64,000 nucleotides of DNA from the NCBI GenBank assembly GCA_963717315.1, contig CAVQWA010000056.1, positions 5,960-69,959 of the forward strand, read 5' to 3'. How positions within the stretch are numbered: position 1 is the stretch's first letter; each line of letters starts with the position of its first letter. Under the pieces are notes generated by a model. The model did not search any database, had not been told where the DNA came from, and saw only the letters and a list, made by a program, of their open reading frames with translations. Both the position numbers and the translations under genes were made by a program. Source of the DNA: an uncultured Gemmatimonadales bacterium. GTDB taxonomy: Bacteria; Gemmatimonadota; Gemmatimonadetes; Gemmatimonadales; GWC2-71-9. Shown here piece after piece: positions 27,788 through 60,771 of this stretch.

Positions 27788-28318
27788 GGGCAGTTCCCTC
27801 TCCCCTCTCCCCTCTCCCCTCTCCCCGAACAGGTCCAGCCTCTCGTGATCGAGCAGCCACCGCTTCCGCTCGATGCCGCCGCCGAAGCCGGTGAGCGACC
27901 CGTCGGCGCCGATCACCCGGTGGCAGGGCACGATGATCGGGAGGGGATTCCGGCCGTTCGCGGCGCCCACCGCGCGCACCGCATCCGGCGACCCGATCCG
28001 GCGCGCGAGCTCGGCATAACTGACCGTCTCCCCGAAGCGGAGTCGGCGGAGTCCCTCCCACACCCGGAGCTGGAACGCGGTGCCCGCCGGTGCGAGCGGC
28101 AGGTCGAAGGTGCGCAGGCTCCCGGCGAAGTACGCACCGAGCTGCTCGCGCGCCGCCGCCAGCACCAGCGATGCCTTCCCCGACCGCCCGCGGTCGCGAT
28201 CCCACCCGGCGCCGATCCGGCCCTCGTGCGGCGCGAACCAGACCGAGGTGAGCCCCCCGTCCTCGGCACTCGTGAGCAGCGGCCCGACCGGGCTCGGGAT
28301 CACGTCGTACACGATCAT
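27782..28318 (-). CDS. ogt: methylated-DNA--protein-cysteine methyltransferase
   Basis: ATG 28318 (MIVYDVIPSPVGPLL). Active site IIVPCHRVIG. The HTH region ETVSYAELARRIG. About 15 C-terminal residues are repeat-encoded. Confidence 0.9.
   Translation of the reverse strand: MIVYDVIPSPVGPLLTSAEDGGLTSVWFAPHEGRIGAGWDRDRGRSGKASLVLAAAREQLGAYFAGSLRTFDLPLAPAGTAFQLRVWEGLRRLRFGETVSYAELARRIGSPDAVRAVGAANGRNPLPIIVPCHRVIGADGSLTGFGGGIERKRWLLDHERLDLFGERGEGRGERELPA
27796..27826. repeat. (CCCTCTC)n heptamer array, about 4 units, inside the 3' end of the ogt ORF
   Basis: ccctctcccctctcccctctcccctctcccc. Encodes the GERGEGRGE tail of the ogt ORF. Confidence 0.92.
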
Positions 28319-28983: not shown

Positions 28984-29860
28984 GCAGGCTGCCACGCACG
29001 CCGCCGCCCCCGCCATCACCCACCCCACCGGCCGCCACGTGGACGTCGGCGCAACCCGTCTTTGGATCGAGGAGGAGGGCCAGGGCGAACCGCTCCTCCT
29101 GCTCGCCGGCGGGCCGGCCAACTCGCACCTCACCTTTCACCCGTACTTCTCGGCGCTGGCCGACGCGTACCGGGTGATCTACGTGGACTACCGCGGCCGG
29201 GGACGGAGCGCGCCGGTGGCGACCCGCGAGAGGTCACCTTCGCAGGGGACGTCGCCGACATCGCCGCCCTTATCGACGCGCTCGACCATCCCGCGCTGGT
29301 GCGCCGCCTGGTGCTCGCCAACACCGTGCACAGCGCGGAGATGTGGCAGAAGAGCCACGAGAACACCAATCGCGAGCTCGAGCTCCAGCACCCCGGGGTG
29401 TGGGACGAGATCCTGGCGCTCCGGGCCGGGGGCGTCCGGTCCACCTACCCGCGGATGCAGAGGCTGTACGCCGTGCACTCGAGGCTGGTGCGCTTCTACA
29501 ACCCCGACAATGCCGTGAAGCTGCTGACCGAGCCGGGATCGCGGAACGCGGAGCTCTACCCGGTCTTCGCCGGCGACGACGTCGAGTTCTTCATCGGCGG
29601 CGAGGTGGCACGGCTCCCCGACTTCCGCCCGCGGCTCAGGGAGCTCGCGATGCCCACGCTCATCCTCGCCGGCCGCTCCGACCGCGCACTCTACCCGAAG
29701 TACCAGTACCAGTTCGCCCAGCGCCGCGCCGCAGGCGGAGTTCACCTGGATGGAGCGGAGCGGCACGTTCGCGCACATCGAGGAACCGGACGCCGTGATG
29801 GCGTTGCTCAGGCGGTTCCTGCGCGGAAGAACCTCGCCGCCATCCGGACCATCGTGTTGA
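28982..29860 (+). pseudogene. decayed alpha/beta-hydrolase gene (two frame changes, nucleophile segment missing)
   Basis: Frame 2 reads MQAATHAA...VIYVDYRGRGRSAPV. Frame 1 then reads DPREVTFAGDVADIAALIDALD-HPALVRRLVLANT...LILAGRSDRALYPKYQYQFAQR. Frame 2 then reads APQAEFTWMERSGTFAHIEEPDAVMALLRRFL. No GxSxG elbow between ALIDAL and VRRLVL. Confidence 0.6.
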
Positions 29861-30356
29861 CATTGCGGAAGGTGACCGGCACGCCCAGCCGGCGCTCGAG
29901 GAGGGCGTTGGCGATCCTGGATTGGCCCACGCCGGCACGTGGCATCCACCAGATCTCGCGGCCGTCCACCTCGAAGGCGTCGGCGGGCGACTCGAGCGCG
30001 GCGAGCGCCTTCCTCCCTGCCGGGGCGAGCGGCTCGTGCAGGAGCCCGACGTGGATCGAGTGGGCCGCGGCGCGCCGCTTCGCACCGAACGGCTCGTATG
30101 CCGCGATCGCCGTCACTTCGGCGCCGGTGCGGAGGAAGGTGGGCACCTCGTAGCCGAGCGCGCCCGCGAGCGCCCGCTCGAGCTTCGATTCGAGGGCGGC
30201 CGGCCGGGCGCGGGACGCGAACACCACGTTGCCGCTCGCGATGAAGGTCTCCACGCCCTCGAGGCCGAGCCCGGCGAAGAGGCGGCGGAACTCCGCCATC
30301 GGCACCACCCGGCCGCCGACGTTCACCGCGCGGAGGAAGGCGGCGTAGCGCGGCAT
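29808..30356 (-). CDS. DUF1697 domain-containing protein
   Basis: ATG 30356 (MPRYAAFLRAVNVGGRVVPMAEFRRLF...), the characteristic DUF1697 N-terminus. Confidence 0.85.
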   Translation of the reverse strand: MPRYAAFLRAVNVGGRVVPMAEFRRLFAGLGLEGVETFIASGNVVFASRARPAALESKLERALAGALGYEVPTFLRTGAEVTAIAAYEPFGAKRRAAAHSIHVGLLHEPLAPAGRKALAALESPADAFEVDGREIWWMPRAGVGQSRIANALLERRLGVPVTFRNVNTMVRMAARFFRAGTA

Positions 30357-30431
30357 CAGAACCGCGCGCGGTCGGCGGTCAAGAGGACATCCGCAAGCAC
30401 CATCCCACGCATCACGAACCACCTCCACCGT

Positions 30432-31100
30432 TCAGGCCGTTCCCGTTCCCCGTTCTCTGTTCCCTGTTCCCTGTTCCCCGCCTTGCCCCTCCCTCCGCCT
30501 CCGGCTCTTCTCCCGCGTCCCGCACGTCGCCATCTCGCACCAGCGGCGGAGCCCGTTCCGGCTCCGGTCCACGTACATCCAGCCGCAGTCCGGGCCGGCG
30601 CACGTCCGGATCCGGTCCGCCTCGTCCGACGCGAGGAGCTTCGCCGCCGACCAGACCGCGCCCCACACCGGGGACTCGAGCTTCGACTCGGCGTCCTGCC
30701 AGGCGAGCTCGAGGCCTTCCTTGCCGCGGGCGAGCCGGAGGTGGGGGAGCGCCTCCCCGAGAAGCCGGTTGAGCTCCGCCACGTCCGCCGCGGATGGGGC
30801 GCCGCGCACCCGGGCCGCCATCGCACGCCGGATCGCCTCCCGGGCCCCGTGGGCCAGCCGGAGTGCCGCCGACGCCTCCCGCGGCCGGGTCGCCGCGCGC
30901 GAACCCAGGGCTGCAGCCTCCCGGCGGGACGCCAGCCCGGCGCCCTGGGCCCACTCCACCAGCCGCGCATAGTCGCCCAGCCGATCGTCCACCAGGCCGT
31001 GCGGGGTCCAGTCCACGGTGTTCACCAGGTCGAGCGCGGGGTCCCCGCCGACGAAGCGGAGCGAGTGGCGGGCGGGACGGGGGGCGGCGGCGGTGGCCAT
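30432..31100 (-). CDS. CGNR zinc-finger (ABATE-domain) putative transcriptional regulator
   Basis: N-terminal LRFVGGDPALDLVNTV. C-terminal CAGPDCGWMYVDRSRNGLRRWCEMATCGTREKSRR zinc finger. The final ~19 residues are encoded by a heptamer array. Confidence 0.85.
   Translation of the reverse strand: MATAAAPRPARHSLRFVGGDPALDLVNTVDWTPHGLVDDRLGDYARLVEWAQGAGLASRREAAALGSRAATRPREASAALRLAHGAREAIRRAMAARVRGAPSAADVAELNRLLGEALPHLRLARGKEGLELAWQDAESKLESPVWGAVWSAAKLLASDEADRIRTCAGPDCGWMYVDRSRNGLRRWCEMATCGTREKSRRRREGQGGEQGTGNRERGTGTA
30437..30479. repeat. (CYGTTCC)n heptamer array, about 6 units
   Basis: ccgttc ccgttcc ccgttct ctgttcc ctgttcc ctgttcc cc. Begins 3 nt inside the CGNR stop region. Confidence 0.9.
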
Positions 31101-31129
31101 GCCCGCAATCTATCACCAGTATTCGGCCC

Positions 31130-31158
31130 TTGACAGGTGCAGGCCCGGGTTCTATCGT
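31130..31158 (+). promoter_or_regulatory. sigma70-type promoter for the ABM-like gene
   Basis: TTGACA (31130..31135), 17 bp, TATCGT (31153..31158). GGGAGG RBS at 31190..31195. ATG at 31204. Confidence 0.55.
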
Positions 31159-31188
31159 GCACCAGTATTATCGAACATACTGGTGCAC
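31157..31188. promoter_or_regulatory. perfect 12-bp inverted repeat operator candidate overlapping the -10/+1 region
   Basis: GTGCACCAGTAT-tatcgaac-ATACTGGTGCAC. A third half-site CACCAGTAT lies at 31114..31122, near the CGNR start codon. Confidence 0.55.
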
Positions 31189-31203
31189 CCGGGAGGCCCG
31201 ACG

Positions 31204-31533
31204 ATGATCGCCCGCATCTGGCAGGGAGCCACCGCCGCCAGGGACGGCGAGGAGTACGTGGAGTACCTGCGGCAGACCGGATTCAGCGAGTACGCCGCCA
31301 CCCCCGGCAACCGGGCGGTGCTCGGCCTCCGGCGCGTGAGGGACGGGCGCGCGGAGTTCCTGCTGCTCACGCTCTGGGAATCGGAGGAGGCCATCCGGCG
31401 CTTCGCCGGGCCCACGCCGGAGCAGGCCGTGTACTACCCCGAGGACGAGCGCTACCTGGTCGAGCGGGGGGAGATCGTGGACCACTGGGAGGTGGTCCAT
31501 CGCTTCGAGGCCGCCGAGCCCGCCGTCCGCTGA
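31204..31533 (+). CDS. small ABM/Dabb-fold (antibiotic biosynthesis monooxygenase-like) protein
   Basis: MIARIWQGATAARDGEEYVEYL...LLLTLWESEEAIRRFAG. The fold assignment is tentative. Confidence 0.7.
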   Translation: MIARIWQGATAARDGEEYVEYLRQTGFSEYAATPGNRAVLGLRRVRDGRAEFLLLTLWESEEAIRRFAGPTPEQAVYYPEDERYLVERGEIVDHWEVVHRFEAAEPAVR

Positions 31534-31547
31534 CCCCGCCGGGAGCG

Positions 31548-31574
31548 AAAAGGGGCGGCCACCCGCGCCGCCCC
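31548..31574 (-). terminator. intrinsic terminator (read on the minus strand), possibly bidirectional
   Basis: Plus strand aaaa-ggggcggc-cacccgc-gccgcccc. On the minus strand this is an 8-bp GC stem followed by TTTT. Sits between convergent stops at 31533 and 31610. Confidence 0.6.
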
Positions 31575-31577
31575 TGC

Positions 31578-31620
31578 CTTCTCCCCACTCCCCTCTCCCC
31601 TCTCCCCTCTCACTTCCCCC
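31578..31620. repeat. (CCYCTCC)-type heptamer array, about 6 units
   Basis: cttctcc ccactcc cctctcc cctctcc cctctca cttcccc. Overlaps the stop of CDS 31610..32191. Confidence 0.9.
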
Positions 31621-32191
31621 GCACCACCACGATCTCCCGCACCATCCCCATCTCCGCGTGCGCCCGCCGCGACACGGGATCGGGAATCAGGCAGGCCGCC
31701 ACGTAGCGGCCCGGCTCGAGGTCGAGGTCGAGGTGGACCTCCTGGCCGGGCCCCAGGCGCGACACGCCGCCGACCCGGGTGGAGGGGGCGTCCTCGTCCG
31801 CGAGGAACTCGGCGAACGAGACGCCCTCGCCCAGGCGGTGCAGCAGCAGGAGATGGTCCTGGCGCCCCTCGTTGGTCACCCGGATCCGGTGCACGCCCTC
31901 GTCGAGCGTGTCCGCACCCACGAAGGCGAAGTCCACGAGCTCGAGCGTCGCCGTCGCCTTCGGCCCCACGGAGCCGTTGCTGTCGGCGGTGGCCCGGAAC
32001 TCCCGCCACACGCCGTTGGTGACGTACCGGCGGTGGTTGGCGGCCCGCGACATGCTGGCCCAGACGTAGCGGCCCGGCTCGAGGTGGAGCACCAGGCTCG
32101 TCTCCTCGGCCGGCGACACGGGGCTCTCCGACCCGCCGCAGCCGAGCGTGAGCGCCCCCGCGAGGACCGCCGCGAGCGCCGGCGGCCTCAA
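31610..32191 (-). CDS. hypothetical lipoprotein
   Basis: TTG 32191 gives MRPPALAAVLAGALTLGCGG (lipobox). The start overlaps the upstream stop (TTGA). No family recognised with confidence. Confidence 0.65.
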   Translation of the reverse strand: MRPPALAAVLAGALTLGCGGSESPVSPAEETSLVLHLEPGRYVWASMSRAANHRRYVTNGVWREFRATADSNGSVGPKATATLELVDFAFVGADTLDEGVHRIRVTNEGRQDHLLLLHRLGEGVSFAEFLADEDAPSTRVGGVSRLGPGQEVHLDLDLEPGRYVAACLIPDPVSRRAHAEMGMVREIVVVRGK

Positions 32192-46017: not shown

Positions 46018-46086
46018 GGGGGGAGGGGAGAGGGGAGAGGGGGAGCGGCCCTCTCCCCTCTCCCCTCTCCCCTCTCCCCTCTCCCC
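46016..46086. repeat. G-arm/C-arm (GGGGAGA/TCTCCCC) hairpin between convergent stops
   Basis: 46016..46041 pairs with 46049..46074. Hand count: 25 Watson-Crick pairs plus one G-T, 7-nt loop. The C-arm extends to 46086. Confidence 0.95.
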
Positions 46087-46088
46087 GC

Positions 46089-47879
46089 CTACCACCTCCC
46101 CCGGGCCCGCCGCTCCAGCCGGTCCCCGAAGTACTCCCCCCACCGCCGCTCGACCAGTTTCTGGACCTCGTCCGGGACCGTCACCGGCGGGGGGTAGCCT
46201 TCCTTCCAGGTGGCGTCGATCCCGATCCGGCCGCGGTAGACCGGCCGCGCGCCGACGAACGACCGCTCCTGGAAGATCATGTCGCGCGCCGGGTCGAACC
46301 GGGTGAAGATCCCCCAGATGGTGCTGGTGTCGTCGGCCAGGTCCACGTCCCCGCTCACCGCCACGACGAACCGCACCGGGCCCAGGCCATCCCACTGCAC
46401 CAGCCGCTCCAGCACCTCGCGCGGGTCCTGCTCCACCTCGACCACCAGCCACCCCTCGATCAGCGCGTGCCGCCGGATCCGGCGGTCGAAGGCCGACGGG
46501 TCGTTCACCTCGTCCGGCGGGGGCGCAGTGGTGATCGCCTCGCCGGTGGCGTCGAGCACCAGCTTCGAGCCCACGTGGAGCCGGAACGAGGTGTAGTCGA
46601 GGGTGTCGAGCGGCGCGATCGGCAGGAGCAGCATCCGCTCCTCCGGCTCGAACCGGTGCCACAGCTCGCGAAGCACCGCGCGCAAGCTCCGCACCGGCAC
46701 CTCCTCGCGGACCATCACCGCCACCTTGGTGAGCGAGAGCTGGCCGGTGCCAAGGAGGTTGAACGCGGTCTTGAGGACCTCCCCGGGGTGCCGTTCGCGG
46801 AGCGACACCGCGAGAAGGTTGTGGAACACCGCGTCGTCGAAGGCGAAGAGGTCGGTGATGTTCGGGTTCACCACCTTGATGAGCGGCCCGATGATCTCCC
46901 CCGCCGCGATCCCGACCCACTTGTCCTCCTGCGGCGGCTTCCCCACCACCGCCGCGGGAATGACCGGGAGCCGGCGCCGCGTCACCGCCTTCACGTGGAA
47001 CACCGGGAACAGCTCGGCCTCGGAGTAGTGCCCGAAGTGGTCGCCGAAGGGGCCCTCGAGCCGGCGCTCGTGCGGCGGCACCACGCCCTCGAGGATCATC
47101 TCCGCGTTGGCGGGCACGAGAAGTCTCGTGGCGCGGCCGGGCGCCAGGCGGGTGGCCTTGCCGCGCACGTAGCCGGCGAAGGCCAGCTCGTCGAAGTCCT
47201 CCGGCAGCGGGAAGATGGCGGAGAGCATCGTGACCGGGTCGCCGCCCAGCACCACCGCCGCCTCGAGCGGCTCGTTCCGCCTCTCCGCCTCGAAGTGGTG
47301 CCCCCGTCCCCCCTTCATCGACTGCCAGTGCATCCCGGTGGTGGCGGCATCGAACACCTGCAGCCGGTAGAGCCCGAAGTTCCGCCGCCCCGTGCCGGGC
47401 GCCTCGGTGAGGGTCGGCCCCCAGGTGATGAACGGCCCGCCGTCCCGCGGCCAGGCGTGCAGGTTCGGCATCCGGTCGAGGGCGGGCGCCTCCACGACCT
47501 CCTGCGCCACGCCGCCCGACACCCGGCGCGGCGGCATGTGCCGGGCCCGGAGGAGCTGCGACCGCGCGCCCCAGAACGCCTTGAGCGTGGGCGGGTTGAG
47601 CCGCTGGATCAGCCCGAGCAGCTCCTCGCCGATCGCCTGCGGATGGCGGCCGAGCGCCAGCTCGATCCGGCGATGCGACCCGAACAGGTTGAGCACCGCC
47701 GGGAAGTCGGCGCCCCTCACCCGCTCGAAGAGCAGCGCCGGCCCGTCCTGGCGGATCACCCGCTGGACGATCTCCGCCATCTCGAGGTACGGGTCCACCT
47801 CCGCGGTGACGCGGAGCAGCTCGCCCTCGCGCTCGAGGGCGGCGATGAAGGACTGGAGATCGGCGAACGGGTAGGTCAT
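46089..47879 (-). CDS. ubiD: UbiD-family (prFMN-dependent) decarboxylase
   Basis: ATG 47879 (MTYPFADLQSFIAALEREGELLRV). Full-length UbiD similarity (NLFGS, GPFITWG, GMHWQ.MKGG, and others). Confidence 0.92.
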   Translation of the reverse strand: MTYPFADLQSFIAALEREGELLRVTAEVDPYLEMAEIVQRVIRQDGPALLFERVRGADFPAVLNLFGSHRRIELALGRHPQAIGEELLGLIQRLNPPTLKAFWGARSQLLRARHMPPRRVSGGVAQEVVEAPALDRMPNLHAWPRDGGPFITWGPTLTEAPGTGRRNFGLYRLQVFDAATTGMHWQSMKGGRGHHFEAERRNEPLEAAVVLGGDPVTMLSAIFPLPEDFDELAFAGYVRGKATRLAPGRATRLLVPANAEMILEGVVPPHERRLEGPFGDHFGHYSEAELFPVFHVKAVTRRRLPVIPAAVVGKPPQEDKWVGIAAGEIIGPLIKVVNPNITDLFAFDDAVFHNLLAVSLRERHPGEVLKTAFNLLGTGQLSLTKVAVMVREEVPVRSLRAVLRELWHRFEPEERMLLLPIAPLDTLDYTSFRLHVGSKLVLDATGEAITTAPPPDEVNDPSAFDRRIRRHALIEGWLVVEVEQDPREVLERLVQWDGLGPVRFVVAVSGDVDLADDTSTIWGIFTRFDPARDMIFQERSFVGARPVYRGRIGIDATWKEGYPPPVTVPDEVQKLVERRWGEYFGDRLERRARGRW

Positions 47880-47884
47880 GCGAC

Positions 47885-47996
47885 AGGGGAGAGGGGAGAA
47901 GGGAGAGGGGAGACGGGAGATGGGGGGGAGGGCATCACGCGCTTGCGCCCACGGTGCGCGTGCCGACCTCTCCCCTCTCCCCTCTCCCCTCTCCCC
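47885..47996. repeat. split G-arm (x6) / C-arm (x4) heptamer inverted repeat between ubiE and ubiD
   Basis: aggggagaggggagaagggagaggggagacgggagatggggggg ...37 nt... cctctcccctctcccctctcccctctcccc. The C-arm lies inside the ubiE ORF tail. Confidence 0.9.
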
Positions 47997-48717
47997 GCTC
48001 CGCGACGTGCAGCGCCGTCGCCCCACCGAGCAGGAGCTCGTGCTCCGCGGCCCGGAAGCCGCACTGCCGGAGCAGGTCGTCCAGCGCCGCGGGCTCGGGG
48101 AAGTGACGGGCCGACTCTGGAAGCCAGGAGTAGGCGTCCGTATGTTTCGAGAAGAACCGGCCCACGCGCGGCAGCACGCGCTCGAAGTAGAGATTGTAGA
48201 GCCCGCGAAGCGGCTGGCGCGGGGGATGGCAGGTGTCCAGCAGGACGAGCCGCGCGCCCGGCTTGAGCACCCGCGCCACCTCGCGCAGCCCGGCCTCGAG
48301 GTCCATCAGGTTCCGGAGCCCCCACCCCACCATCGCGCCGTCGAAGGTGGCGTCGGGAAACGGCAGCTGGAGCGCGTCGGCGGTCACCGGCTGCAGTCCC
48401 GGCGCCTTGCCGCGCCCGAGCCGGAGCATCGGCAGGACGAAGTCGGCGGCGGTGATCTTCCCGCGGAACCCGGGCTGACGGGCCAGGGCGGCCGAGAAAT
48501 CGAGCGTGCCGGCGCAGAGGTCGAGGTAGTGACCGTCGGGACGGCGCTCCCATCCGAGCCGCCGCACCGCCACCTTCCGCCAGTGAATGTCCAGGCGGAA
48601 GCTGATGATGCGGTTGAGGCGGTCGTAGCTCGGGGCGATGGCGGTGAACATCCCCCGCACATAGGCCCGCTTCTCCGCTCCGCCCGCAACGGGCAACTGT
48701 CCACCGGAGGCCGACAT
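47935..48717 (-). CDS. ubiE: demethylmenaquinone/ubiquinone C-methyltransferase (UbiE/MenG)
   Basis: FTAIAPSYDRLNRIISF...YLDLCAGT SAM motif...LRNLMD. The final AERGEGRGERGEVGTRTVGASA is repeat-derived. Confidence 0.9.
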   Translation of the reverse strand: MSASGGQLPVAGGAEKRAYVRGMFTAIAPSYDRLNRIISFRLDIHWRKVAVRRLGWERRPDGHYLDLCAGTLDFSAALARQPGFRGKITAADFVLPMLRLGRGKAPGLQPVTADALQLPFPDATFDGAMVGWGLRNLMDLEAGLREVARVLKPGARLVLLDTCHPPRQPLRGLYNLYFERVLPRVGRFFSKHTDAYSWLPESARHFPEPAALDDLLRQCGFRAAEHELLLGGATALHVAERGEGRGERGEVGTRTVGASA

Positions 48718-56196: not shown

Positions 56197-56280
56197 CGGG
56201 ACGGGGAACGGGGAGAGGGGAGAGGGGAGAGGGGAGCGGGGAGGGGGCCCTCTCCCCTCTCCCCTCTCCCCTCTCCCCCC
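56197..56280. repeat. G-arm/C-arm heptamer hairpin filling the whole intergenic gap
   Basis: 56210..56236 pairs with 56252..56278 (27 pairs by hand count). Three further GC pairs follow after one mismatch. Spans exactly from start codon 56196 to stop codon 56281. Confidence 0.95.
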
Positions 56281-57408
56281 TCACCCGCTCACCACCGGCA
56301 GCGTCGTCTCCAGCCCCGCCACCTCCTCCACCACCCGCTGGGCGATGTCGCGGAGGGCGGTGGCCGCCGGGCTCCCCGGCTGGGAGAGGACGATCGGGCG
56401 GCCGAGGTCGGCGTCGTCAGGGAGGCCGGGCTGGAGCGGGATCTTGCCGAGGAGCGGGATGCCAAGCTCCTCCGCCAGCCGCTGGCCGCCGCCGGTGAGG
56501 AAGATGTCGGAGTGCTGGCCGCAGTGGGTGCAGGTGAAGCCGCTCATGTTCTCCACCACGCCGGCCACGGGCACGCCGACCTTCTCGAACATCTTCGCCC
56601 CGCGGAGCGCGTCGCCGATCGCCACCACCTGCGGCGTCGTCACGATGATCGCGGCCGTGACCTTCGTGGTCTGCGCCAGCGAGAGCTGCGCGTCGCCGGT
56701 GCCGGGAGGCATGTCCACGATCAGGTAGTCGAGTTCGCCCCACGCGACGTCGTGCAGGAACTGGTGGATCACCTTCATGATGATCGGCCCGCGCCAGATG
56801 ACCGGCGCGTCGCGCTCGAGCAGGAACCCGAGCGACATCAGCTTCACCCCGTACGCCTCCAGCGGGACGATCCGGTTGCCGTCCCGCATCGGACGCTCGA
56901 AGACGCCCATCATCCTCGGCACGTTGGGGCCGTAGACGTCGGCGTCCATCATCCCCACCCGGTGCCCCGCCTCCGCGAGCGCCACCGCCAGGTTCACCGC
57001 CACCGTGGACTTCCCCACCCCGCCCTTCCCCGACGACACCGCGATGATCCGCCCGAGGTGCGGCAGCTCCATCCCCGCCGGAGCCGTCCCGGCCGCTCCA
57101 GCGGTCGCAGGCGCCCCCGCCCCCGCCCCCGCCCCCGGCGGCCCGTGCGTCGCCGGCGCCGGGCCCGCGGGATCGGTCACCCGGATCCGCGCCGGCGGCT
57201 CGACGCCCGTCACCCCCTCCACCGCCTTCCGCACCTGGCGCACCAGCGTCGCCGGGTCATCGCGGCCGAGGAGGAAGGTGAAGGAGACCTCGCCGGCGTC
57301 GGACACCGACAGGTCGCGCACCAGGCCGGCCGTGAGGACGTCGCCCTTCGCGGGATGCGCCACGCCGCGGAGCGCGGCGAGGACGCGGGAGTGGAGCGTA
57401 TCGGTCAT
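56281..57408 (-). CDS. apbC: Mrp/ApbC-family Fe-S cluster carrier ATPase
   Basis: ATG 57408 (MTDTLHSRVLAAL). N-terminal DUF59-like domain. Gly/Ala/Pro linker. Deviant Walker A SGKGGVGKST. CTHCG motif. Confidence 0.92.
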   Translation of the reverse strand: MTDTLHSRVLAALRGVAHPAKGDVLTAGLVRDLSVSDAGEVSFTFLLGRDDPATLVRQVRKAVEGVTGVEPPARIRVTDPAGPAPATHGPPGAGAGAGAPATAGAAGTAPAGMELPHLGRIIAVSSGKGGVGKSTVAVNLAVALAEAGHRVGMMDADVYGPNVPRMMGVFERPMRDGNRIVPLEAYGVKLMSLGFLLERDAPVIWRGPIIMKVIHQFLHDVAWGELDYLIVDMPPGTGDAQLSLAQTTKVTAAIIVTTPQVVAIGDALRGAKMFEKVGVPVAGVVENMSGFTCTHCGQHSDIFLTGGGQRLAEELGIPLLGKIPLQPGLPDDADLGRPIVLSQPGSPAATALRDIAQRVVEEVAGLETTLPVVSG

Positions 57409-60686: not shown

Positions 60687-60771
60687 GGGGGAGAGGGGAG
60701 AGGGGAGAGGGCCGAGCGGCCGTCGCGCGTCTCCCGTCTCCCCTCTCCCCTCTCCCCTCTCCCCTCTCCCC
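60687..60771. repeat. G-arm/C-arm heptamer inverted repeat
   Basis: 60688..60711 pairs with 60741..60764 (24 Watson-Crick pairs by hand count), with a 29-nt loop. The C-arm ends at the stop of CDS 60771..61859. Confidence 0.93.

Follow-up and report, generated by a model that had tools for sequence, protein, structure and literature searches.

The 103-bp intergenic region at 31101-31203 of a 64,000-nucleotide stretch from an uncultured Gemmatimonadales bacterium (contig CAVQWA010000056.1; the whole stretch is referred to below as the window) separates a minus-strand gene for an ABATE/CGNR zinc-finger regulator from a plus-strand gene for a small ABM-like protein. Analysis of this region and its relatives revealed two palindromes, O1 and O2, which are very probably operators and interlock with the predicted promoters of both genes. 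We consider it probable that the CGNR protein occupies O1 and O2 as a dimer, thereby repressing the ABM-like gene and regulating its own synthesis, and that a ligand releases it. A preliminary description of the region had proposed a repressor-operator layout, and this reading is now supported by the conservation of the sites, their fixed geometry, the lack of RNA-type covariation, the tracking of the sites with the CGNR gene and the occurrence of a related palindrome in other phyla.

The CGNR gene starts with CAT at 31098-31100 (minus strand) and the ABM-like gene with ATG at 31204. The region between them has a GC content of 58%, compared to 70-80% in the surroundings. The promoter TTGACA-17 bp-TATCGT given in the preliminary description was located at 31130-31158, and the perfect 12-bp inverted repeat that was said to lie over its -10 and +1 was found with the same 8-nt spacer. 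This promoter (P_abm) agreed with a sigma-70-type promoter at 10 of 12 positions and was the single site recovered by a promoter scan of 30300-31800, compared to 0.0 expected from shuffles. Transcription of the ABM-like gene is predicted to start near 31164-31166 (+), within the left arm of the inverted repeat, here termed O2. The arms of O2, GTGCACCAGTAT (31157-31168) and ATACTGGTGCAC (31177-31188), are 100% complementary and 8 nt apart. At its 5' end O2 takes in the final bases of the -10, and it extends over the predicted +1 of P_abm. The probability of finding a perfect 12-bp inverted repeat with a loop of 3-20 nt in 103 bp by chance is approximately 8e-5, and the exact 12-mer occurred at only these two spots in the window.

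A third half-site had also been described, 14 bp from the start codon of the regulator. A copy of CACCAGTAT was indeed present at 31114-31122, at a distance of 13 nt rather than 14, and it proved to belong, as the left arm, to another complete operator, O1. The cores of O1 are CACCAGTA at 31114-31121 and GACAGGTG at 31132-31139. It shares with O2 a 10-nt identical stretch (CACCAGTATT) whose second copy lies 46 bp downstream. Inverted repeats with an inner spacing of 12 nt are formed by CACCAGT (31114) and ACAGGTG (31133) in O1, and by CACCAGT (31160) and ACTGGTG (31179) in O2. Each O1 arm is located exactly 46 bp upstream of its O2 counterpart and both operators have an 18-nt arm offset, giving the common geometry tGCACCnGTA-N8/10-TACnGGTGCa with centres 46 bp apart. 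When the 26-bp operator model CACCNGTA-N10-TACNGGTG was run over the window, it matched only at 31114 (one mismatch) and 31160 (no mismatches); no sites with two to three mismatches were found in the 64 kb, where approximately 2.3 would be expected. Likewise, neither the exact 12-mer with at most two mismatches nor the 26-bp model with at most three gave a further site in the 64 kb.

The two operators are tightly interwoven with the promoters (Table 1). The right arm of O1 is fused to the -35 box of P_abm in the block TTGACAGGTG, while its left arm overlaps the proposed -10 of the regulator and provides the TG of this minus-strand extended -10. Since the extended -10 stops 6 nt short of the regulator ATG, the regulator mRNA would probably be leaderless, with a start at about 31100 (-). 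Together, the rightward P_abm and the promoter P_cgnr on the other strand (TGnTAGATT) would constitute a compact bidirectional control region. Because O1 overlaps the extended -10 of the regulator itself, we propose that autoregulation is built into this region.

Table 1. Coordinates of the features of the CGNR-ABM locus in the window.
Feature	Position	Strand	Evidence
ABATE + CGNR zinc-finger regulator gene, 222 aa	30432-31100	-	Pfam matches, invariant Cys, fold match
Extended -10 of the regulator's own promoter (proposed), TGaTAGATT	31107-31115	-	Sequence and conservation
Operator O1, aTCACCAGTAttcggcccttGACAGGTGCA	31112-31141	.	Arm offset, 46-bp repeat and conservation
-35 hexamer TTGACA of the ABM-gene promoter	31130-31135	+	Promoter scan
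Spacer of the ABM-gene promoter, 17 bp	31136-31152	+	Sequence
-10 hexamer TATCGT of the ABM-gene promoter	31153-31158	+	Promoter scan
Operator O2, palindrome GTGCACCAGTAT-N8-ATACTGGTGCAC	31157-31188	.	Perfect inverted repeat
Shine-Dalgarno-like GGGAGG, 7 nt 5' of the ABM start codon	31191-31196	+	Sequence; GGAGG at the same place in most homologous loci
ABM-like (ferredoxin-like alpha+beta) protein gene, 109 aa	31204-31533	+	Weak Pfam match, AlphaFold2 fold match, divergent orthologs

A metagenome scan with the window regulator returned 80 loci, and in 60 of these an ABM ortholog was divergent from the CGNR gene. The regulators of the 60 loci were mostly 45-58% identical to that of the window. 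The footprint was derived from the window plus these loci (61 sequences), the information content from 58 non-redundant loci and the -10 counts from 59. The upstream regions aligned without gaps over two blocks, tAGCACCAGTATTcggcnCTTGACAGGTGCA and, past the -10, ttGCACCAGTAa-N-tATACyGGTGCA. Within these, CACCnGTA, TACnGGTG and the -35/half-site block carried 1.8-2.0 bits per position, compared to 0-0.5 bit in spacers and flanks (approximately 0.5 in the O1 spacer and 0 in the O2 spacer). In 60 of the 61 sequences the left arm of O1 was 16 nt away from the -35, O2 kept its 18-nt arm offset in all 61, and the -35 and O2 were separated by 30-32 nt. Between O2 and the start codon of the ABM gene, by contrast, there were 5 to 47 nt. 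Because this distance floats while the promoter spacing is fixed, the operator belongs to the promoter and not to the ribosome-binding site.

The promoter elements themselves were conserved together with the operators. TTGACA was invariant or nearly so in the 58 loci, and the GGTG directly 3' of it was invariant in 56-58 of them, a degree of constraint for which the -35 hexamer by itself cannot account. A TAnnnT -10 was present in 50 of 59 loci and the 17-bp spacer in 46, with the -10 ending 1-2 nt 5' of the O2 core. On the minus strand, the TG of the extended -10 was kept in 59 and 57 of the 59 non-redundant loci, followed by T1 in 47, A2 in 48 and T6 in 52. Given this pattern, there is next to no likelihood that the repeats are a chance or selfish feature of the repetitive extragenic palindrome (REP) or miniature inverted-repeat transposable element (MITE) type, devoid of a regulatory role. 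Short repeats do abound in the genome, with heptamer arrays on both sides of the locus, and a dispersed palindromic repeat in Saprospiraceae metagenome-assembled genomes (MAGs) happens to fit the family pattern. However, the exact 12-mer is unique to this locus within the window, the repeats keep nucleotide-exact positions with respect to the -35 and -10 in 60 loci, and the cores were kept while the spacers drifted, a conservation pattern that refutes this explanation for practical purposes.

Whether the O2 repeat acts as DNA or as RNA could be addressed from the way in which its arms vary. Over 56 aligned sequences, the covariation score of O2 was 0.076 compared to a shuffled mean of 0.075, and was reached by 234 of 500 shuffles. 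The variable arm positions (columns 9/26 and 13/22) were unpaired in 29 and 34 of the 56 sequences, respectively. An Rfam scan with E up to 10 gave no match, and the predicted ABM leader folded no better than shuffles (z = 0.68). This evidence favours a DNA site, and the conservation of the arms at the sequence level on either strand is the hallmark of symmetric protein binding. An RNA hairpin in the 5' leader of the ABM-like gene, whether it served in attenuation, in mRNA stability or as the binding site of a zinc-ribbon protein that recognises RNA, was very improbable in our assessment. The right arm and part of the left arm of O2 would be transcribed, a truncated AGUAU...AUACU stem appeared in the minimum-free-energy fold, and the regulator family bears an "RNA-binding" annotation. 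Yet a transcript beginning at the predicted start, within the left arm, would be too short at its 5' end to fold into the 12-bp stem, and the distance to the start codon is unconserved. Moreover, O1, which has the same architecture, sits upstream of the promoter. An RNA element was rejected on the missing Rfam match, the lack of covariation beyond shuffles (with the variable positions mostly mismatched) and the ordinary folding of the leader.

Loci in which the two genes have parted company were informative with respect to the binding protein. In eight loci with a different divergent gene, O1 was kept beside the CGNR gene in all eight and an O2-type palindrome was found in five; the alternative partners included a large secreted protein and an arginase-like protein. 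Conversely, one ABM ortholog (L210) stood among unrelated genes with no CGNR neighbour and had no site. The sites track the CGNR gene rather than the ABM gene.

Two further arrangements were noted among these relatives. At L211 (2300-2500), the sole palindrome in front of an ABM ortholog is of the O2 type, and an adjoining uncalled remnant encodes a CGNR N-terminus (...LPFKYIGGDPSVDLVNTVDW), which looks like a decaying regulator gene having lost O1 and the -35. At L044 (298-2919), L046 and L175, secreted proteins of one family (800-870 aa) are encoded divergently from CGNR genes, with TGCACC-type operators in the Gemmatimonadales-type loci and the canonical TGTAACC form, described below, in the locus from an AT-rich genome. 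Because the same protein family partners both operator types, this large secreted target would have been kept across operator dialects.

The association extended to distant members of the family. A gene-first sample consisted of 16 plasmid-borne CGNR genes, 22-40% identical to that of the window, from Alpha-, Beta- and Gammaproteobacteria, Deinococcota, Bacillota and Actinomycetota. Where annotated, nearly all of them were divergent from a neighbour. Directly upstream of 11 of the 16, the palindrome TGTAACC-N18/19-GGTTACA was present with at most two mismatches; its chance occurrence is approximately 1.3e-3 per locus, and at least 9 of 16 would be reached by chance with a probability of 1e-22. 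Four further loci of this sample had symmetric variants or N9 spacing. The Deinococcus locus carried two copies of TCTTACC-N18-GGTAAGA and the Macrococcoides locus TATAACT-N18-GGTTATA, while two Streptomyces plasmids (L087, 1541-1563; L219, 729-751) carried a perfect TGTAACC-N9-GGTTACA right before the CGNR gene. The Streptomyces spacer is one helical turn shorter than in other phyla, and at both Streptomyces loci a gene for an SRPBCC-domain protein follows the CGNR gene in the same orientation.

The converse, motif-first scan searched 185,579 genomes for exact TGTAACC-N18/19-GGTTACA, and the first 120 matches listed covered 888 kb. Among these 120 matches, 15 coincided with the start of a CGNR-family gene or lay a short way 5' of it (hidden Markov model E 1e-32 to 1e-63). 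Thirteen of the 15 ended 8-198 bp before the estimated start, and the match at L188 and one of the two sites at L175 overlapped the estimate. These 15 were the only CGNR genes within the 888 kb sampled, an outcome with a chance probability of approximately 1e-28. Their hosts included Brevibacillus, several Acidobacteriota, Caballeronia, an enterobacterial MAG, Sphingomonas and Thermoanaerobaculia. Taken with the plasmid sample, a palindrome related to that of the window precedes CGNR genes in at least five other phyla (Proteobacteria, Acidobacteriota, Bacillota, Deinococcota and Actinomycetota).

Canonical loci resembled the window in layout as well. They usually had two operators, mostly 41-48 bp apart, and the CGNR-proximal operator contained TGTAACCTGTCAA, which reads TTGACAGGTTACA on the other strand. 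This is the same fusion of a -35 with a half-site as TTGACAGGTGCA in the window. In two canonical loci from Acidobacteriota and Thermoanaerobaculia (L118 and L131), the CGNR gene was divergent from an ABM ortholog 42-44% identical to that of the window. The window operator TGCACC-N18-GGTGCA is therefore a lineage-specific, diverged counterpart of the canonical TGTAACC-N18/19-GGTTACA; the form TGCAACC-N18-GGTTGCA, found at L063, is intermediate between the two.

Among the remaining motif-first matches, part were supplied by a dispersed palindromic repeat of approximately 40 bp (gcggTGTAACCGCnAAAC...GTTTnGCGGTTACAccgc). It was present in at least ten copies, nine of them in MAG GFS_12016, and accounted for L101, L106, L109, L130, L134, L149, L157 and L159 (Saprospiraceae MAGs GFS_12016 and GFS_9243). 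This repeat is unrelated to CGNR genes and fits the family pattern by coincidence. A different case was found in an Edaphobacter MAG (L154, 490-565), in which a secreted protein with a twin-arginine translocation (Tat) signal is encoded downstream of two exact TGTAACCGG...CCGGTTACA palindromes, 43 bp from one another. There was no CGNR gene within this 8-kb locus, and the palindrome pair may represent a remote member of a CGNR regulon.

Changes in the half-site coincided with changes in the zinc-finger helix of the adjoining regulator. The helix motif of the window regulator is CGTREKSRRRR, in which CGTR corresponds to C193-G194-T195-R196, and the Asn of the CGNR motif was replaced by Thr in most of its orthologous group. 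In L063, L076 and L077, all four half-sites were CAACC rather than CACC, and the helix was CGGREKARRHY. Every canonical TGTAACC locus had CGN. The pairs of half-site and helix were TGCACC with CGT, TGCAACC with CGG, TGTAACG with CGS, CGT or CGV, and TCTTACC with CGS. This tracking of the half-site by the helix that gives the family its name is suggestive only.

From these comparisons, we lean slightly towards the CGNR zinc finger being a family-wide, sequence-specific reader of DNA with a shared code, in which the motif helix would be the recognition helix and its Asn position would help to set the half-site. In that case, regulators in six phyla (Proteobacteria, Acidobacteriota, Bacillota, Actinomycetota, Deinococcota and Gemmatimonadota) would each be preceded by between one and three inverted repeats of the TGTAACC-N18/19-GGTTACA type, with N9 in Streptomyces and TGCACC-N18-GGTGCA in the lineage of the window. 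The half-site centres are 24-26 bp apart (16 bp in Streptomyces), corresponding to about n + 1/2 helical turns. At such a spacing, the two fingers of one dimer would contact the DNA from opposite sides, unless wrapping or bending of the DNA brought the half-sites into reach; either would be unusual for a bacterial repressor. If the shared code holds, operators and target genes could be predicted for thousands of regulators that are now unannotated.

Five independent lines of evidence suggest the CGNR protein as the likely binder: the site follows the gene, half-site and helix change in concert, the gene-first and the motif-first samples each associate gene and palindrome, and the layout is shared across operator types. 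That the palindromes are instead operators of a different, unlinked transcription factor, with the CGNR protein doing something else such as binding RNA, is improbable on this evidence. Such a factor would accord with the annotation of COG5516 members as possibly RNA-binding, and the window has no second copy of the site that ties it to one regulon. It is difficult to reconcile with the CGNR gene being the sole gene common to all motif-carrying loci in at least six phyla, where the divergent partners vary (ABM-like protein, alpha/beta hydrolase, DinB-like protein, EamA or MFS transporter, large secreted protein). Nor would it account for all 15 CGNR genes of the motif-first sample adjoining the motif, or for the half-site variants that coincide with changes in the CGNR helix.

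For the CGNR protein as a repressor, the following mechanism is proposed. Regulator dimers would bind each palindrome through the C-terminal treble-clef zinc finger, with the CGNR-motif helix (here CGTR) reading the outer TGCACC half-site. Occupancy of O1 would block both the -35 of P_abm and the extended -10 of P_cgnr, and occupancy of O2 the -10/+1 of P_abm. RNA polymerase would be shut out of both promoters, so that the ABM-like gene is off and the regulator curbs its own synthesis, until a small molecule sensed by the ABATE domain releases the regulator. Dimerisation and sequence-specific DNA binding are suggested by the palindromes together with the dimer described for 3H0N (PMC2954205). 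The recurrent divergent partners, comprising ABM-like proteins, alpha/beta hydrolases, DinB-like proteins, and EamA and MFS transporters, suggest functions in small-molecule stress or detoxification.

The main residual alternative, which we regard as unlikely, is that binding of the CGNR protein to O1 and O2 activates transcription or switches it both ways, as MerR and LysR regulators do. O1 lies at and upstream of the -35, a position also used by class II activators, and the -10 is imperfect (TATCGT; usually 3-4 of 6 positions across loci), so that the promoter could need help. On the other hand, in every locus O2 extends over the +1 and the 3' part of the -10, where a bound protein would block RNA polymerase, and O1 overlaps the regulator's own -10. 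The perfect TTGACA and the optimal 17-bp spacer in 46 of 59 loci are also typical of a strong promoter needing restraint.

A number of points weigh against the CGNR protein acting at these sites as a repressor. The link between protein and site is purely comparative, and the sign of regulation was deduced solely from operator position. The 64-kb window held no operator site besides O1 and O2, so no regulon backs the assignment. Recognisable sites were missing from one of the 16 plasmid loci (L217, the only such case) and from two metagenomic homologs (L056 and L061). The correlation of helix and half-site came from a handful of lineages and had exceptions, namely CGN with TCTAACC and CGN with TATAACT. 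For a simple dimer, the half-site spacing of 24-26 bp (approximately 2.3-2.5 helical turns) is unusual. The zinc-finger part of the AlphaFold2 (AF2) model of the regulator was of low confidence, with a predicted local distance difference test (pLDDT) score of 53-65, and COG/JGI annotation labels the family (COG5516) "possibly RNA-binding". Finally, the literature searched, outside of which lie subscription-only papers, contained no binding, footprinting, expression or start-mapping data for any family member.

As stated in the preliminary description, the regulator itself is a member of the ABATE/CGNR family; domain, cysteine and fold criteria agree on this. It matched Pfam ABATE (PF07336) over residues 19-158 with E = 4.1e-20 (73 bits, cut-off 24.4) and zf-CGNR (PF11706) over residues 163-204 with E = 7.5e-17, and the zinc ligands C167, C172, C188 and C193 were invariant among 30 homologs. 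A sequence search of the PDB gave 3H0N as the sole significant relative (E = 1.3e-4). The AF2 model (pLDDT 82) matched the same structure in Foldseek with E = 3.4e-6, probability 1.00 and template modelling (TM) scores of 0.53/0.62, and no other Foldseek match had E < 1. NCBIfam models matched none of four local proteins. Close homologs were annotated as Gemmatimonadales, and the window encoded no paralogous CGNR or ABM gene.

The 3H0N structure is that of Jann_2411 from Jannaschia sp. CCS1, the founding ABATE/CGNR structure from 2009, for which the authors proposed a dimeric, ligand-responsive DNA-binding regulator and identified no DNA site, target gene or ligand (PMC2954205). Like the window regulator, Jann_2411 combines ABATE with zf-CGNR and has a four-Cys treble-clef finger followed by a basic helix. 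Unlike it, Jann_2411 has CQNR instead of CGTR, at an overall identity of approximately 24%, and for the window regulator an operator pair and a target gene can now be proposed. With CQNR in the founding member itself, the CGNR motif cannot be regarded as strict. The family has been called "putative stress-induced transcription regulators" since this structure, and there is an incidental mention of a CGNR gene that Bordetella pertussis induces when starved of sulfur. Apart from the 2009 structure paper and incidental table entries, the same literature search found no DNA target, target gene or ligand of an ABATE/CGNR protein, and the PDB contained one apo structure of the family and no DNA complex. 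This agrees with the earlier statement that the DNA targets of these regulators are poorly defined.

The layout is reminiscent of better known local repressors. In Tn10, TetR is encoded divergently from tetA, and the tandem palindromic operators tetO1 and tetO2 extend over both promoters and mediate autoregulation. The window locus shares divergent genes, twin operators and probable autoregulation with this system, and release by a ligand is presumed. In contrast to the N-terminal helix-turn-helix of TetR, the CGNR regulator has a C-terminal zinc finger and no TetR_N domain. Its operators are 30-33 bp long with an unconserved 18-19-bp outer spacer (8 bp between 12-bp arms in the window version), compared to the compact 15-bp palindrome of tetO. 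MarR- and PadR-type local repressors, which control small detoxification or efflux genes, are similar in that a small regulator is divergent from a transporter, hydrolase or small oxidoreductase gene, with palindromes over the shared promoter. They differ in half-site spacing and in fold, which is unrelated (Foldseek MarR matches had E > 1 and TM of approximately 0.1).

With respect to the DNA-binding domain, Ros/MucR proteins are likewise bacterial transcription regulators with a zinc-stabilised domain. Theirs is a globular domain derived from the C2H2 type that prefers AT-rich sites without a strict palindrome, whereas the window regulator has a Cys4 treble clef on an ABATE sensor domain and a GC-containing inverted repeat. 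Eukaryotic fingers of the nuclear-receptor and GATA type carry two zinc modules in each domain, and their half-sites are 0-5 bp apart. They share the treble clef with the CGNR finger, and in them the helix after the zinc knuckle reads a 6-7-bp half-site and dimers recognise inverted repeats. No homology is implied, and by analogy this resemblance suggests how the CGNR helix might read DNA.

The identity of the target gene product was less clear than that of the regulator; the ABM label of the preliminary description was borne out weakly, by a Pfam match below the cut-off and a similar predicted fold. The 109-aa putative protein matched PF03992 with 17.5 bits (E = 0.005), below the gathering score of 23.1, and a precomputed PF03992 match was present in only a few of its orthologs. 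Its AF2 model had a pLDDT of 77, with residues 77-91 disordered. The best PDB matches in Foldseek were TT1380, IsdG, IsdI and MhuD, with probabilities of 0.92-0.98 but E of 0.02-0.05 and TM of approximately 0.5, and a PDB sequence search gave marginal matches only (E >= 0.13). "ABM-like" is a fair label for this protein.

Local repression from twin operators is in itself textbook knowledge, and the value of the locus would lie in opening an uncharacterised family rather than in a new principle. At E <= 1e-3, 7,402 cluster representatives (50% identity) matched the window regulator. The locus and its relatives supply an operator model, a promoter layout that predicts repression and autoregulation, and a list of recurrent targets. 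With these, a large uncharacterised regulator family gains a first testable DNA target, and regulon prediction could become possible across thousands of genomes.

Some features of the surroundings deserve mention. A DUF1697 gene (29808-30428) on the same strand begins 4 nt past the CGNR stop codon in an operon-like arrangement; it was rejected as part of a conserved module, the arrangement being kept only in the closest locus (L001). The window CGNR protein has a C-terminal tail of 15-20 aa (...GEQGTGNRERGTGTA), which most homologs, at approximately 200-210 aa, do not have. Because this tail is encoded by a CCGTTCC-type heptamer array (30432-30480), the repeat seems to have extended the CGNR open reading frame. 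Tandem heptamer arrays of the type (CCCCTCT)n / (AGAGGGG)n were frequent throughout the window, with 62 matches compared to 0.56 expected at approximately 17 places, among them 27796-27826, 30437-30480, 31580-31611, 46018-46086, 47879-48003, 56203-56285 and 60688-60771, and they sit on both sides of the CGNR-ABM pair. Several of the arrays are inverted pairs, which could form long intergenic hairpins similar to REP elements or terminators.

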